Source: a bacterium (GTDB lineage: Bacteria > Sysuimicrobiota > Sysuimicrobiia > Sysuimicrobiales > Humicultoraceae). From it: a stretch of DNA of 64,000 bases. Below, piece after piece: positions 7,149 to 11,498 of this stretch. The first letter of the stretch is position 1. Each line of letters begins with the position of its first letter. The notes under the pieces are model-generated. The model was not told the DNA's origin. It made no database searches and was given only the letters and a program-made list of their open reading frames with translations. The stretch spans positions 1 to 64,000 of the forward strand of contig JBGQGY010000001.1 in assembly GCA_041497675.1 (NCBI GenBank), in the 5' to 3' direction. A program made the position numbers and the translations under genes.

Positions 7149-7937
7149 ATGCAACGGGTGTGGGCCGGTCTCATCGATTTGTTGTTTCCCCCGCGGTGCG
7201 CCGGGTGCGGCGCGCGGGGTGCGTGGTTTTGCGCGCGGTGCGAGGCCACGCTGGCGTGGATGCGGCCGCCGGTGTGCGAGCGGTGCGGCGACGCGCTCGC
7301 GGGCGATCCGAACGGGGCCGCGTACTGCGATGCGTGCTGTCGCACGCCGCCCGCCTTTGCTGTCGCCCGGTCGCTGGCGGCGTACGACGGCTCGCTGCGC
7401 CAGGCCATTCACGCGTTGAAGTATCGACAGCAGAGGGCGGTGGCTGAGCCGCTGGGAGCGTTGCTGGCGCGCGCCGTGCCCTGGGAGGTGGCGGTGGGGG
7501 TCACGGCCGTCGTGCCCGTCCCGCTTCATCCCGCCCGTCAGACGACCAGAGGATTCAATCAATCGGCGCTGCTGGCCCGGCCCGTGGCCAGGGCGCTGGA
7601 CGTGCCGGTCGTGCCACACGCGATCCGCCGGGTGCGCCAGGAAGCGTCCCAAGCCGGCCTCGGCGCAGCGGCGAGGCGGCGAAACGTGCTGACCGCGTTC
7701 GAACCGGATAGCGTCTCGGTCGCCGGCCGCGTCTTGCTGATTGACGACGTGTTCTCGACCGGCGCGACCGCAGACGCGTGCGCGCGGGCCCTCCTTGCCC
7801 GGGGGGCCGCCAGCGTGGGCGTCCTGACGCTGGCGAGGGCCGTGCTGCGACTGACGGTGCATGACTGGAAGTCGGGTGGCGGCAGCCGCACCGTGACGTT
7901 GGTCCCCCAAATGTCCTCACCGGGTGCCGATAGATGA
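7149..7937 (+). CDS. comF: ComF family phosphoribosyltransferase-like protein with double zinc ribbon
   Basis: LFPPRCAGC, CERC/CDAC, VPVPLH, RGFNQS, LLIDDVFSTGAT. Confidence 0.9.
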   Translation: MQRVWAGLIDLLFPPRCAGCGARGAWFCARCEATLAWMRPPVCERCGDALAGDPNGAAYCDACCRTPPAFAVARSLAAYDGSLRQAIHALKYRQQRAVAEPLGALLARAVPWEVAVGVTAVVPVPLHPARQTTRGFNQSALLARPVARALDVPVVPHAIRRVRQEASQAGLGAAARRRNVLTAFEPDSVSVAGRVLLIDDVFSTGATADACARALLARGAASVGVLTLARAVLRLTVHDWKSGGGSRTVTLVPQMSSPGADR

Positions 7938-7952
7938 GACCGGGGGACACCA

Positions 7953-8222
7953 ATGCGGATGATCTTCGGCCTGCTGATTCTTGTGGTCTGTATCGCGCTG
8001 ACGGCAGCGTGCGGGGCGACGGGGCGTCCGCCCGTGCTCGCCGCAGGCGCCCAGGGTAGCGGGGAACCGCACTCCGTCGAGGCGGAGTCGCAGCGCCGGT
8101 TTCACTCCGCGGCCATCACCTCACGCATGCTCGTGTCGATCGCCCAGATGCTGGGAGGCATGAGGGTGCCGATCGTGCTCGACGGCCGCGGATCGCAGAC
8201 ACTCTTCGATCCGGACCGGTGA
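7953..8222 (+). CDS. Small exported protein/lipoprotein, putative second peptide precursor
   Basis: Hydrophobic N-terminus with lipobox-like LTAAC; stop overlaps next start (GTGA); ends LFDPDR like the 9047 protein (VFDPAN). Confidence 0.6.
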   Translation: MRMIFGLLILVVCIALTAACGATGRPPVLAAGAQGSGEPHSVEAESQRRFHSAAITSRMLVSIAQMLGGMRVPIVLDGRGSQTLFDPDR

Positions 8223-8971
8223 GCGCTTCCCACGGCGTCGGCCGCGGGGCGAGGACCGCTCTCGTCTGGTCCGCCGCCGCTGCCGTGATCCAGTGGACGG
8301 TCACCGAGTTCACGCTGAGGGGTCCGCTCACTCACCTGCTTGTTGAGGGCCTCCGAAAGACCGGCACGGTGCTCTCGCCGCCCAACCGGCTGGAAGTCAG
8401 TGCGTTCCTGATCGCACCGATCACGATCGCGCTCGGCGCGATGTGTGTGCTTCGAGCCCGCCGGGACGGTCTCACCCCGTTGGGCCTCGGGTACCAGTGC
8501 GATCGGCGGCGCGTGGCCGCAGGGGCACTGGGGGGCGTTGCGACCCTGATGGTGTCCGCCCTGGCCGTCATGGCCGACTCCTGTCTGTTTGCCGCGCCGG
8601 CGATTCAAGAACGGTTCATGACACGGGTGAGCGCCGCCGCGATACCCGCGCTCGTCGCCCTCGTGCTGGGCAACGGCGTGCTGGTCCCCGTCGTGGAAGA
8701 GTTCGCGTGGCGCGGGTACATCCAAACGCGTCTGGTGGGCGCGTGGAGTCCCACGGCGGCCGTGGTGACGACCGCCGCACTGTTTGCGCTCAAGCATGTC
8801 GTGGTGGATGGGTCCGTCGTCCGGATGACCACGCTCCTGACCGGCGCATTCACGCTTGGGCTCATCGGGTACCGATATGGCACCGCGGCGTCGACGATGG
8901 CGCACGTGATCCTCAACGTCACTGGGACCGCGGCATCCGTCGCCGCCACCTTCTTGATTGCGCCCCCGTGA
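8219..8971 (+). CDS. CPBP (CAAX/Abi) family intramembrane metalloprotease
   Basis: EEFAWRG, FALKH and HVILN motifs; multiple hydrophobic segments. Confidence 0.9.
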   Translation: MSASHGVGRGARTALVWSAAAAVIQWTVTEFTLRGPLTHLLVEGLRKTGTVLSPPNRLEVSAFLIAPITIALGAMCVLRARRDGLTPLGLGYQCDRRRVAAGALGGVATLMVSALAVMADSCLFAAPAIQERFMTRVSAAAIPALVALVLGNGVLVPVVEEFAWRGYIQTRLVGAWSPTAAVVTTAALFALKHVVVDGSVVRMTTLLTGAFTLGLIGYRYGTAASTMAHVILNVTGTAASVAATFLIAPP

Positions 8972-8992
8972 ACTCACCGGTCCGGCGTCGAT

Positions 8993-9016
8993 GGACATGA
9001 GTGCACGATCATGTCC
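8993..9016 (+). promoter_or_regulatory. Perfect inverted repeat upstream of the precursor gene (operator or 5' RNA hairpin)
   Basis: GGACATGA-N8-TCATGTCC. Confidence 0.5.
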
Positions 9017-9046
9017 TGGGCCCGGTGGCCCAAGGGAGGGATGGAG

Positions 9047-9460
9047 ATGAAGTGGTTGAGCATGTTGATCCTTGTGGTGGGGTTGGTGACTGGTGTCGCC
9101 GTTCATGGGTCCCGTGCGGCGCCCATCGCGCGACACAGCGTCGCGTTTGCGCAGTGCCCGGAGGGCGGCGCGGCGGGTGACGCCTGCCAGGCGCTGACCT
9201 CGCGGCTGGCGTTGGGCGTCGAGGAAGGACCGGGAGACTACATCGGCGTCGTGTCGGCGATTGGCGCCGTGGGCGCGAACGAGGCCGGCATCATCGGCGC
9301 CGGAGGCGATATCAGCCCGGACCGGTGGGTGGCCGTCGCGCTGGCGGCGATGGAAGTCGCCAGAGCGGTCTTCCAGAACTGGGACAGGTTCTTTGGGCAT
9401 GACATGGCCCTGGGGCCGGGCGTTCCCGTTTTTGATGGAGTATTTGATCCCGCCAACTGA
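9047..9460 (+). CDS. Secreted peptide precursor (SdpC-like role by context)
   Basis: AAGGGAGG RBS; signal peptide; C-x9-C pair; amphipathic RWVAVALAAMEVARAVFQNWDRFFG; directly upstream of sdpA/sdpB-like genes. Confidence 0.7.
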   Translation: MKWLSMLILVVGLVTGVAVHGSRAAPIARHSVAFAQCPEGGAAGDACQALTSRLALGVEEGPGDYIGVVSAIGAVGANEAGIIGAGGDISPDRWVAVALAAMEVARAVFQNWDRFFGHDMALGPGVPVFDGVFDPAN

Positions 9461-9463
9461 GGG

Positions 9464-9499
9464 GAAGGGGAGGGGGCGCGTCGGGCTTCCCTCCCCTTC
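9464..9499 (+). terminator. Strong intercistronic hairpin without U-tract (mRNA stabiliser or partial attenuator)
   Basis: GAAGGGGAGGG (9464-9474) pairs with CCCTCCCCTTC (9489-9499). Confidence 0.6.
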
Positions 9500-9524
9500 A
9501 CACGCGGCGAAAGGAGATGTCGTG

Positions 9525-10172
9525 ATGCGCAACCTGTTGACGGCGTGGCTTGCGGCCTCGGTGATGACCATCGTGTCGGCCGTCTACCTTGTCAGCGCCC
9601 TGCTGTATCTGGCGCCGCCCAATCCCGTGACGCTGCTCCACCTGCCGGCCATTCGGGGCCTGCTGCACCCGTTCTTCGCCCAGAACTGGCACCTATTTGC
9701 GCCGAATCCCATTCGGATGAATCTGGTGCTCACGGTGCGGTGCAGCACCGGCGCCCAGGTGACACCCTGGCTCGACCCCTTCACGCCGTGGTTGGCCCAA
9801 CACCACCGCAATCGGTTCTCGCCGATGGGCAAGATGCTGCGCGTCCCGCAGAATGCGATGTTCGCCGTCCTGGGACGGTCCGCGGACGAGTGGCGGCCGC
9901 TGATCTGCCGGCGGACGCCTGAGGCGCCGATGTGTCGGGGCGAGGACCCCGCCTCCCGGCGGCAGCGCGATCTGGGGGTCTTCATCCTGCAGCGCGTCGG
10001 TTCGGCGGTGTGCGATCAGGTCGCCGGTTCGGGGCGCGTCCGCTACGTGCAGCCGCGCATCCTGATCCACGAGCCGCCACCGTGGTCGAAGCGCATGTTG
10101 CCGGCCGGCGCCGGCTCGACGAAGTATCTGCCCCTCCCGTGGCTGCCCTACGTGCCGGTGAGCGGGTCCTGA
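9525..10172 (+). CDS. DUF5819 / SdpA-like membrane-anchored protein
   Basis: N-terminal TM, APPNP, PFFAQNWHLFAPNP motif; AAGGAG RBS. Confidence 0.8.
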   Translation: MRNLLTAWLAASVMTIVSAVYLVSALLYLAPPNPVTLLHLPAIRGLLHPFFAQNWHLFAPNPIRMNLVLTVRCSTGAQVTPWLDPFTPWLAQHHRNRFSPMGKMLRVPQNAMFAVLGRSADEWRPLICRRTPEAPMCRGEDPASRRQRDLGVFILQRVGSAVCDQVAGSGRVRYVQPRILIHEPPPWSKRMLPAGAGSTKYLPLPWLPYVPVSGS

Positions 10173-10190
10173 GTGGGAGGACGTGGCGGG

Positions 10191-11498
10191 ATGATCCGAC
10201 CGATGTCCTGGCTGGTCACGGAGCACTGGCTCATCGGGGCGAGCCTAATGCGCGTCTCCCTGGGTGTGTGGGCCGTCTACTACTACCTGTTGCATTGGGG
10301 AGTCCGCCGAGAGTTGTGGGGGCCGGCCGGTGTCCTGCCGTTCGAGAAGTTCCTCGAGAGCGGTCCCCGGATCAACGTGTTCCAGTGGAATTCGTCGCCA
10401 CTCTACTTCGAAGCCGTCTATGCGGCGGCGATCCTCATTGCGGTGGCCGTAGCCATCGGCTATCGGTCGCGCCTCATGCTCCCGCTGCACTGGCTGATGA
10501 TCTGGTCGCTGCAAGAACGCAACCAGTTATTGGGCGATGGCGGGGATAACATCATGCGGATCGTCTTGTTGTTCCTGGCGTTGGTCGACACCGGGGCCCA
10601 CTTTTCACTCGATGCGTTGCCCGCAACGCGGTCGTCGCGGTGGGGATGGCGGGACGCCGCGCGCGCCCTCTGCGAGCGCAACCGGGCGGCTCAGGCCGTC
10701 GTGCACAACTTCGGGGTCCTGCTGATCCTCGCCCAGTTGTCGTTGCTGTACATGAGTACCGGTCTGTATAAGGTGATGGGGGAACTGTGGCAGAGCGGGA
10801 CGGCCGTCTACTACATCCTGCGCGTCGATGAGTTTTCGTGGCCGGGTGCCGAGGTGATCTACCGCAATCCCTACTTGGTCGTCCTGGCCACCTACGGGAC
10901 GGTCCTCTTCGAGCTGATGTTCCTGCCGTCCCTCTTCAATCGATGGACCCGCTATGCGACGATTGTGGCTGGGATCGTCTTCCACGCGAGCATTGCCCTG
11001 GTGATGGGGTTGGTCACGTTCGCCTGGAGTATGGCGAGTATCTACCCGCTGTTGGTGACCGACGAGGAGTACGCCATGGCCGACACATGGTTTCGAAGGC
11101 GCTTCGGGCTTACGGCCCTCTACGATGGGTGGTGCCCCGCGTGCCTGCGCAGCGTCCGATGGCTGTCGCGGTGCGACCTGTTGTCGCTGGTGACGTTTGT
11201 CTCGTTTCGCGACCCCGGCGTCGTCGAGCGGTACGGGGTGGATGCGGGGCGGGCCGCGCAGCGGATCCACAGCATCGACGCGGCCGGCCGGGTGCGCGAA
11301 GGCATCGACGCCATGATCGCTCTTGGGGGCCGGACGGCCGTGCTGTGGCCGCTCGTCCTGCTCTTCTGGCTGGCGCGTCTGGCGGCGGGCCAGCGATTCT
11401 ATGATGCGGTTGCCTCTCGGCGGGTCATCCTGATCCCGGGGGTGTGCGCGAATCACTGCGCCACCGGGCCACCGGCGGCCCGGCGCCAGCCCAGCTGA
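10191..11498 (+). CDS. HTTM domain (SdpB-like) membrane protein fused to a DCC1-like (DUF393) thiol-disulfide oxidoreductase
   Basis: RNQLLGDGGDN, QLSLLYMSTGLYK...WQSGTAVYY, FHASIALVMGL; C-terminal LYDGWCPAC...GIDAMIAL...FYDAVASRR. Confidence 0.85.
   Translation: MIRPMSWLVTEHWLIGASLMRVSLGVWAVYYYLLHWGVRRELWGPAGVLPFEKFLESGPRINVFQWNSSPLYFEAVYAAAILIAVAVAIGYRSRLMLPLHWLMIWSLQERNQLLGDGGDNIMRIVLLFLALVDTGAHFSLDALPATRSSRWGWRDAARALCERNRAAQAVVHNFGVLLILAQLSLLYMSTGLYKVMGELWQSGTAVYYILRVDEFSWPGAEVIYRNPYLVVLATYGTVLFELMFLPSLFNRWTRYATIVAGIVFHASIALVMGLVTFAWSMASIYPLLVTDEEYAMADTWFRRRFGLTALYDGWCPACLRSVRWLSRCDLLSLVTFVSFRDPGVVERYGVDAGRAAQRIHSIDAAGRVREGIDAMIALGGRTAVLWPLVLLFWLARLAAGQRFYDAVASRRVILIPGVCANHCATGPPAARRQPS

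Follow-up and report, generated by a model that had tools for sequence, protein, structure and literature searches.

Gene content of the locus

The DNA analyzed here is a 64-kb stretch (the window; positions 1 to 64,000 of contig JBGQGY010000001.1, assembly GCA_041497675.1), on the plus strand of which one tight row of genes encodes, in this order, a ComF-family protein, a small open reading frame (ORF1), a CPBP protease, a second small frame (ORF2), a DUF5819 protein, and an HTTM-DCC1 fusion (positions 7149 to 11498). Our subject is ORF2, a member of a conserved precursor-like family that ends in Phe-Asp (F-D) and a few further residues, together with its relationship to the two enzyme genes downstream and to ORF1, which has the same ending. 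For both small ORFs, the original prediction had quoted an N-terminal signal-like segment with LILVV and, directly before the stop codon, the endings LFDPDR and VFDPAN; the sequences read exactly so.

ComF forms the conserved left border of the locus and keeps the same position in relatives. The GTG start of the CPBP gene overlaps the stop codon of ORF1 (GTGA), and the HTTM gene starts at the base right after the DUF5819 stop. The longest form of ORF2 begins at 9011; the ATG at 9047, which gives 137 amino acids (aa), agrees with the start of every homologue. DUF5819, HTTM, and DCC1 all score above their Pfam gathering thresholds in the window, and no Pfam or NCBIfam family matched ORF1 or ORF2. 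The operon occurs only once in the genome. The coordinates of the features are collected in Table 1.

Table 1. Features of the locus, in positions of the window
Feature	Positions	Strand	Remarks
ComF-family gene	7149..7937	+	PF18912 and PF00156; TIGR00201 (comF) E 3.6e-28, below cut-off
ORF1, 89 aa	7953..8222	+	Signal-like N terminus (residues 1-20), variable linker (20-55), conserved C-terminal part
ORF1 tail, residues 68-89	8154..8219	+	F-D-P codons at 8205-8213
CPBP (Rce1-like) glutamic intramembrane protease, 250 aa	8219..8971	+	PF02517, E 7.6e-13
ORF2, 137 aa, member of a conserved precursor-like family	9047..9460	+	Family alignment
ORF2 signal peptide, residues 1-24	9047-9118	+	Within ORF2
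ORF2 Cys37 / Cys47	9155-9157 / 9185-9187	+	Within ORF2
ORF2 S-P-D-R-W motif	9314-9328	+	Within ORF2
ORF2 helix, residues 91-116	9317-9394	+	AlphaFold2 model
ORF2 tail	9395-9457	+	F-D-P at 9443-9451
Hairpin rich in GC (about 13 bp in the stem; without a T-run)	9464..9499	+	Directly 3' of the ORF2 stop codon
DUF5819 protein, 215 aa, N-terminal transmembrane helix and globular domain	9525..10172	+	PF19136, E 3.5e-18, 67.2 bits (cut-off 27.1)
HTTM fused to DCC1-like thiol-disulfide oxidoreductase, 441 aa	10173..11498	+	PF05090, 37.5 bits (cut-off 27.7); PF04134, 53.6 bits (cut-off 27.8)
HTTM-DCC1 Lys200	10770-10772	+	In G-L-Y-K-V-M-G-E-L-W
HTTM-DCC1 C-P-A-C motif	11133-11144	+	DCC1 part

The ORF2 family and its linkage to DUF5819

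Relatives of ORF2 were found in 19 of the 61 genomes searched, namely, 17 of the 33 from the same taxonomic family, the window itself, and one doubtful match with two internal stops, and a search of 5.8 billion proteins gave 23 clusters, the named ones being labeled Armatimonadota metagenome-assembled genomes. Two unpublished genomes (G019 and G010; loci L005, L006, L027, and L028) enter the counts of the family, of its linkage, and of the absence of ORF1, as well as the family profiles and the discounted out-of-register match described below; alignments A1 and A6 and the DUF5819 tree leave them out. Without these two genomes, the family comprises 17 copies, 15 with FDP and 17 with FD.

The family has a common layout. 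A signal peptide ending in G-S-R-A is followed by S-x-A-F-x-Q-C and by a second Cys about 10 residues on, then come a variable Gly/acidic stretch and a P-(D/E)-x-W motif that opens one long helix, and finally a Gly, 15 to 20 variable residues, and F-D with 1 to 4 residues after it. The invariant positions of alignment A1 are M1, A18, S22, A24, C37, C47, F133, and D134. When ORF2 was modeled with its alignment in AlphaFold2, the mean pLDDT was 62, and only the signal helix and the helix at 91 to 116 were confident, the tail being disordered. The signal peptide was recognized, with no dedicated predictor, from the hydrophobic N terminus with its conserved G-S-R-A and from the model helix at residues 2 to 21. 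A protein atlas search with ORF2 was uninformative (best score, 0.83).

No exception to the terminal F-D was seen: the 19 genomic copies continue it as FDP (17), FDV (one), or FDT (one), and the 23 database clusters as FDP (17) or FDTSL[QH] (six). The endings FDV, FDT, and FDTSL[QH] show that the conserved core is F-D, not F-D-P. The original prediction was to be refuted by a lack of terminal FD(P) enrichment among homologous precursors, and these counts fail to refute it; judged from the sequences, a terminal F-D(P) as a conserved feature tied to the DUF5819/HTTM genes is supported. In the genome as a whole, an FDPxx ending occurs in six of the 67,734 stop-to-stop ORFs of at least 30 aa (4.8 expected from composition), and two of these six are ORF1 and ORF2, about 1.2 kb apart on the same strand. 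The ending is rare, and its sharing by the two neighbors, together with the profile scores of ORF1 given below, goes beyond chance. Of the other four, one (a second ORF ending in FDPAN, on contig C170) turned out to be an out-of-frame artifact inside a real gene.

Other features that had been proposed as common to the two small ORFs fared less well. The tripeptide HSV is present in a single one of the 19 ORF2-family members and in two of the five ORF1 homologues, and the feature of the family is S-x-A-F-x-Q-C, absent from ORF1. An amphipathic core held for ORF2 (hydrophobic moment of 0.57, reached by 43 of 1,000 shuffles) and failed for ORF1 (0.32, reached by 934 of 1,000).

By position, the family is closely bound to DUF5819. 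An ORF2-family gene lies directly upstream of DUF5819 in 17/17 related loci, with HTTM-DCC next in 16 of them and the 17th ending at the contig end, and a sigA-SAHH-comF neighborhood houses the whole block across relatives. The co-occurrence is equally strict: DUF5819 was found in 23 of the 94 genomes of this small GTDB phylum, and within the taxonomic family the ORF2 family is present in 17 of the 18 DUF5819-bearing genomes and in none of the 15 without DUF5819. The sole exception is a 59% complete genome whose contig stops at DUF5819.

Several properties recall genes for peptide precursors. Identities of the small proteins are 27 to 41%, versus 55 to 69% for the HTTM proteins of the same genomes. 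One genome (G007) carries tandem copies (L032:7191-7634 and L032:7757-8194), both ending in FDPxR, which are a precedent for precursor duplication inside the locus. The GC-rich hairpin that follows ORF2 (arms GAAGGGGAGGG...CCCTCCCCTTC; no T-run) has counterparts of different sequence, with stems of at least 10 bp, behind the homologous gene in 13 of 15 loci, and z is -3 or lower in 12 of the 15 (mononucleotide shuffles; z of -2.0 in the window). A hairpin in such a position is commonly seen in peptide-precursor operons, and this one could make the precursor mRNA more stable or limit read-through into the genes for the enzymes. The ORF2 model, too, is largely disordered but for one helix. On the profile searches made, the family is uncatalogued, and no description of an F-D-ended precursor class was found in the searches made of the literature outside subscription journals.

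The enzyme pair, comparable systems, and F-D ends in other phyla

A PDB search with the single HTTM protein returned nothing, and it was only with a profile of 22 HTTM-DCC homologues that the chains of human gamma-glutamyl carboxylase (GGCX) were reached (E 5.6e-8). Lys200 of the window protein falls opposite Lys218 of GGCX (full-length numbering), which we take to be the catalytic base, the Trp six residues later is invariant, and the DCC1 domain retains its CxxC (C-P-A-C). The HTTM core is thus related to that of the GGCX family and keeps the aligned lysine. By analogy with GGCX, the HTTM active site would presumably face the extracytoplasmic side, which fits substrates carrying Sec signals. 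Unlike the substrates of GGCX, the small proteins of the window have no Gla-like Glu cluster, and, unlike for GGCX itself, carboxylation has been shown for no bacterial DUF5819 system. The DUF5819 protein gave a confident AlphaFold2 model (pLDDT, 90.7) for which Foldseek found no match in the PDB at E ≤0.001, and thus no solved relative, and for which the best hit of a wide VIA-align search (Z of 5.5) covered the N-terminal helix only.

A 2026 preprint (10.64898/2026.08.19.745780), in the portions available, predicts DUF5819 and HTTM-DCC1 to form a GGCX-like complex in which DUF5819 takes the place of the substrate (propeptide) clamp of GGCX, and likens it to MloH, which carboxylates an aspartyl residue; the substrate channel is described there as blocked, and those portions name no substrate. 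The Melghirimyces pair that they present has the same architecture and adjacency as the pair in the window. Term searches of the preprint returned no mention of precursors, signal peptides, or Sdp.

Two families of peptide systems offer comparisons. In SdpABC/YitPOM, according to the accessible parts of PMC6818787, a secreted pro-protein is cut in an SdpAB-dependent manner to an internal hydrophobic peptide, the active SDP or YIT peptide deriving from a hydrophobic segment near the C terminus and leaving a C-terminal remainder. These systems and the window alike combine a pro-protein with a Sec signal, an HTTM-family protein (SdpB/YitO there), and another small membrane protein (SdpA/YitP there), and ORF2 has, as an SdpABC-type precursor would, an N-terminal Sec-type signal and, in the model, a helix-forming segment near the C terminus. 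The window differs from SdpABC in the fusion of HTTM to a DCC1 oxidoreductase and in the CPBP protease that stands where immunity genes of the SdpI/SdpR type would be expected; an F-D terminal motif of SdpC/YitM is not mentioned in the same parts of PMC6818787. The HTTM protein matched the SdpB family model TIGR04033 at E 5.9e-22 and 78.6 bits, below the cut-off of 178.4, and by this score is a relative of SdpB, not a member of the subfamily. NCBIfam holds models of SdpA and SdpC, and no other NCBIfam model matched the DUF5819 protein, ORF1, or ORF2 at E ≤0.1, so that no SdpA or SdpC was recognizable. SdpABC proper was rejected on these two grounds.

In linaridin clusters, the HTTM-type protein LinG and a second protein of unknown function aid peptide maturation, as stated in the available text of two reports (10.1101/2020.07.09.196543 and PMC9927463). 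The window resembles them in having an HTTM-type membrane protein beside a candidate ribosomal peptide. It is unlike them in that none of the six ORFs scanned between 7149 and 11498 is an alpha/beta-hydrolase (LinE, or a LinH fusion) and in that its precursors, 90 to 150 aa long, carry Sec-type signal peptides, unlike the leader-type precursors of linaridins; the missing LinE and the Sec-type signals rule out a linaridin cluster. Going by sequence, the operon is best filed as a variant of the SdpAB/GGCX-like kind of peptide maturation with an uncatalogued precursor family.

Other lineages were reached through a degenerate DNA pattern for an invariant DUF5819 motif, which returned at least 80 loci, the listing being dominated by Streptomycetaceae. 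Among the matches listed (80 loci), 76 had a DUF5819 ORF and 74 ORFs matched the HTTM-DCC protein; relatives of the ORF2 family were absent among them, and none of their 3,781 ORFs ended in FDP followed by 0 to 3 residues. An F-D end was present all the same among these listed matches: a signal-peptide ORF directly upstream of DUF5819 ends in ...AFDN in Virgibacillus and in ...IFDK in Paenibacillus, and Hymenobacter has two to three tandem copies with F-x-x-F-D followed by five to six residues (...FSQFDNVSHN, ...FSEFDLKAAAI, and ...FTDFDHGPDAR).

The Bacilli were sampled more broadly, and 25 of 301 genomes had DUF5819. FD-ended ORFs lie upstream of it in six of the 25, at eight loci (IVFDQ, VMFD, AFDN, VVFDN twice, TVFDQ, YLFDN, and EIFD), and two more have variant endings (IVFNK and EAFGR). 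Tallies of FD-type ORFs were made by reading the loci; a crude signal-peptide rule missed several clear cases. Endings of FD plus 0 to 2 residues were found in 9 of the 72 Bacilli ORFs immediately upstream of DUF5819, versus none of 741 others (Fisher p 2e-10, a value inflated by related loci), the nine being those of the eight loci in the six sampled genomes plus one Paenibacillus locus. Elsewhere, three Myxococcota loci end in EFLD, EFLLD, and RALD, and the flavobacterial Sungkyunkwania has, ahead of DUF5819, a tandem of three small ORFs with signal peptides (L073:2322-3305), ending in SLD, ILD, and SLD. Because the Sungkyunkwania and myxobacterial ends are L-D, the comparison suggests that the motif, put more generally, may be (F/L)-D located at the C terminus or close to it.

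The Bacilli ORFs, for which curated families gave no match, combine the FD end and a signal peptide with V-E-P-Q-x-x-P-A-V and a Gly/Ala-rich helix; a signal peptide is likewise found in the ORFs of other phyla, along with a Gly/Ala-rich helix and a motif of the (E)P(Q/E) type. A Bacilli profile retrieved two Hymenobacter ORFs among 73,102 ORFs (E 9e-4 and 0.011). Its match to an ORF2-family member (E 0.0099) was discounted, as it aligns a different 'EP', out of register, and the ORF2-family profile found nothing among 4,923 ORFs of the other-phylum loci (best E 0.7).

Interpretation and alternative explanations

On balance, and with moderate confidence, we read ORF2 as a Sec-exported pro-protein whose F-D end would be bound or modified by the downstream SdpAB/GGCX-like membrane complex. 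The observations behind it are the order and conservation of the genes, their co-occurrence, the motif, and the relationship of HTTM to GGCX; from them we infer export, binding, chemistry, product activity, and the role of CPBP. In the proposed sequence of events, ORF2 would be exported by Sec and handled outside the cytoplasm by a complex of DUF5819 and HTTM-DCC1, a putative split bacterial relative of both the vitamin-K-dependent carboxylase and SdpA/SdpB. Once the signal peptide is removed, the protein would consist of a Cys37-Cys47 disulfide loop, a disordered Gly/acidic stretch, one long helix, and a flexible tail, and the invariant Phe-Asp of that tail, 1 to 4 residues from the C terminus, would be the element that the complex most likely binds or modifies. 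The released product, containing the helix, would probably be a membrane-active or signaling peptide, and CPBP may serve as a processing enzyme or a self-protection factor. ORF1, if translated, would enter the same pathway.

The HTTM-family proteins are needed to mature the SDP/YIT toxins and the linaridins by a chemistry that is unknown, and the DUF5819-HTTM-DCC1 pair had so far had a predicted model without a substrate, for which the locus now gives concrete candidates. Endings of this kind also accompany the enzyme pair in Bacilli, Bacteroidota, and Myxococcota, so that what a bacterial carboxylase homologue acts on, and what it recognizes, becomes a directly testable question; several carriers belong to named species for which strains have been deposited (Virgibacillus, Paenibacillus, and Hymenobacter), while the organism of the window is known from its assembled genome only. 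A bolder extension, to which we give little credence at present, is that (Phe/Leu)-Asp-ended, Sec-exported ribosomal peptides of several phyla might be the natural substrates of split vitamin-K-carboxylase homologues, the invariant Asp or a nearby acidic residue being carboxylated outside the cytoplasm, and that the DCC1 redox domain could recycle the quinone. If true, a ribosomal peptide would for the first time be known to undergo quinone-dependent carboxylation in bacteria, and the steps of SdpAB and of LinG/LinL in linaridins, so far unexplained, would gain a mechanism. If the motif is only a habit of the lineage, the finding reduces to the annotation of an uncatalogued precursor family and of a species-specific duplicate.

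A number of results weigh against the reading of ORF2 as a substrate recognized by its F-D end, or against including ORF1 in it. The locus is syntenic across the whole taxonomic family, apparently by vertical inheritance, which is unusual for toxin loci. Homology between the ORF2 family and the Bacilli ORFs was not demonstrable (hhalign probability of 1.5%, over a 9-column sPDRW-VEPQ match only), and the resemblance across phyla could be convergent or come from post hoc selection of the motif. In a quick-method tree of DUF5819 with 69 rows, the proteins associated with FD fall into a clade of the window (100*), a Bacilli clade (92), a Hymenobacter/flavobacterial clade (98*), and a myxobacterial clade (100*), which no supported branch joins; 34 of the 66 forks are open, the deep ones among them. 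No FD-type ORF was seen in 17 of the 25 DUF5819-bearing Bacilli genomes (seven of them checked to about 5.5 kb), upstream of DUF5819 in about 60 actinomycete loci among the matches listed, or upstream in four loci of a sister family of the same phylum and three further Bacteroidota loci. With so many DUF5819-HTTM pairs lacking an FD-type ORF, the motif is not a general requirement of the enzyme pair. As to ORF1, it was not found in 60 relatives, where the two weak matches had an internal stop in one case and lay within a 475-aa frame in the other; against a contig 95.3% identical over 1,861 bp it shows two synonymous and six nonsynonymous codon changes, all of them in the first 55 codons; and its differences by codon position [2,5,2] have no third-position excess, which ComF [9,7,21] and CPBP [7,4,17] do show.

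These last points make the best case for the strongest of the alternatives, that ORF1 is not functional, being either the decaying remnant of a duplicate or a spacer open by chance, so that only ORF2 matters. We regard this as possible, though clearly less probable than the substrate reading of ORF2. The interval between ComF and CPBP, 281 bp in the window and -4 to 93 bp in relatives (starts taken from the longest ORFs), is consistent with it, as are the nonamphipathic core and the lack of the two-Cys loop (S-x-A-F-x-Q-C...C) in ORF1, which also has no Gly/acidic segment. The 17 related loci hold no extra FD-ended small ORF; a 141-aa ORF ending in FDV or FDI in four of the relatives' loci was set aside as an unrelated conserved protein without a signal-like start. 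Against a remnant stand the four homologue clusters of ORF1 in the database (84 to 93% identity, all 89 aa), the frame being intact in five variants, and the distribution of variable columns among the five homologues (1/19 in the signal peptide, 17/36 in the linker [residues 20 to 55], and 3/34 in the C-terminal part [56 to 89]). The two population variants of ORF1 in contigs of four sediment metagenome DNA runs are both synonymous. The base composition is coding-like (GC1/2/3 of 0.685/0.528/0.843, as in the neighboring genes), GGGGGA, similar to a Shine-Dalgarno sequence, lies 6 to 11 nt ahead of the ATG, and the stop codon overlaps the start of CPBP.

The C-terminal part of ORF1 reads GG-x-R-V-P-I-V-L-D-...-L-F-D-P-D-R and is nearer to the consensus of the ORF2 family (G-G-L-P-I-x-L-D...L-F-D-P-x-R) than the tail of ORF2 itself. 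A direct BLASTP comparison of ORF1 with ORF2 gave nothing (E 0.44). With a full-length family profile, built from relatives without the window copy, ORF1 ranked second of 1,076 window ORFs (E 0.0072) and third of 67,734 genome ORFs (E 0.45); with a profile of the last 32 residues, it scored 13.9 bits, equal to ORF2's own score, the two taking ranks 2 and 3 of the 67,734. The hhalign comparison of the ORF1 alignment with the ORF2 family reached E 1.2e-4, over the signal peptide. We consider ORF1 to be a recent, shortened, species-restricted paralogue that has kept the signal peptide and the canonical tail of the family and is probably still coding. The last 34 codons of ORF1 (window 8121-8219) show no nucleotide difference from the 95.3%-identical contig, where about five would be expected by estimate; conserved synonymous sites at this end could reflect an overlapping signal for CPBP, instead of or besides constraint on the protein.

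An alternative that concerns ORF2 itself, and that we hold to be unlikely though worth keeping in mind, is that the small protein is not a substrate but joins the DUF5819-HTTM complex as a third subunit, structural or regulatory, or is an envelope protein docking by its F-D end. One copy per genome, the synteny with apparently vertical descent, and the strict co-occurrence with DUF5819 would suit a subunit, as would the central helix, which in other phyla is Gly/Ala-rich and transmembrane-like. Against a subunit, the small protein evolves much faster than the enzymes, and the tandem multiplication to two or three copies and the hairpin after the gene are typical of precursor genes; many DUF5819-HTTM pairs, moreover, do without the small protein.

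Rather less probable still is that CPBP, in the manner of CAAX or Mrt proteases, reads the F-D-P tail for C-terminal processing or sorting, and that DUF5819/HTTM does not. CPBP belongs to the cluster in 14 of 17 relatives (ahead of the precursor gene in nine and after the HTTM gene in five), and in the window it is flanked by the two ORFs with FDP ends, to the first of which, ORF1, it is translationally coupled. The best NCBIfam matches of the window protein are C-terminal-sorting proteases, yet these Mrt-type models all scored far below their cut-offs (the best, MrtS, 48.2 bits versus 130), and, unlike those of Mrt substrates, the tails have no transmembrane helix or basic cluster after the motif, the proteins ending 1 to 4 residues after F-D. 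An Mrt/CPBP C-terminal sorting system was rejected on these two counts. Where no CPBP was detected, the FD end still tracks adjacency to DUF5819: searching with the window protein by phmmer, at limited sensitivity, found none among the matches listed (80 loci, including the FD-type Virgibacillus, Paenibacillus, and Hymenobacter). Abi/CPBP proteins act in bacteriocin self-immunity, and the window is like CPBP/Abi bacteriocin loci in that a PF02517 protease gene adjoins genes for small secreted peptides; none of the specific CPBP models in NCBIfam reached its cut-off with the window protein.

Last, the proposals that ORF1 and ORF2 form a two-component membrane-active peptide, or that ORF1 is a lipid-anchored decoy or immunity factor, start from their common ending within one operon and from a Cys at the lipobox position of the window ORF1, and we judge them very improbable: the other 17 system-bearing genomes have no ORF1-like gene, so that the system works without it, the core of ORF1 is not amphipathic, and Cys20 is present in one of five homologues, with Arg in the other four, so that ORF1 does not qualify as a lipoprotein with a conserved lipobox and neither idea found support.

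Some further observations concern the surroundings of these genes. A 489-aa minus-strand frame (window 8102-9571) lies antisense to CPBP and ORF2 and resembles the spurious antisense frames common in high-GC DNA. In a sister family of the same phylum (f4; L221:1964-2749 and L222:1947-2570), the gene ahead of DUF5819 encodes another kind of signal-peptide protein (207 to 261 aa), which has a long repeat of the G-T-T-G-G type, lacks the F-D end, and may be a different class of substrate for the same enzyme pair. Several Bacilli clades with DUF5819 and HTTM-DCC have no recognizable small secreted ORF nearby (L172-L177, L179, L181, L182, L184-L191, and L196); at one of these loci (L191), a CPBP-like ORF with EELIFRG...H motifs lies 622 bp upstream. 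The Streptomycetaceae loci among the matches listed (L046-L122), in which no precursor-like ORF was seen, have a conserved neighborhood, with a rhodanese-like gene upstream in two of the loci read, and at least 27 Streptomycetaceae loci contain, at another place and for the most part on the opposite strand, a gene ending in ...CREPFDHFKEL.

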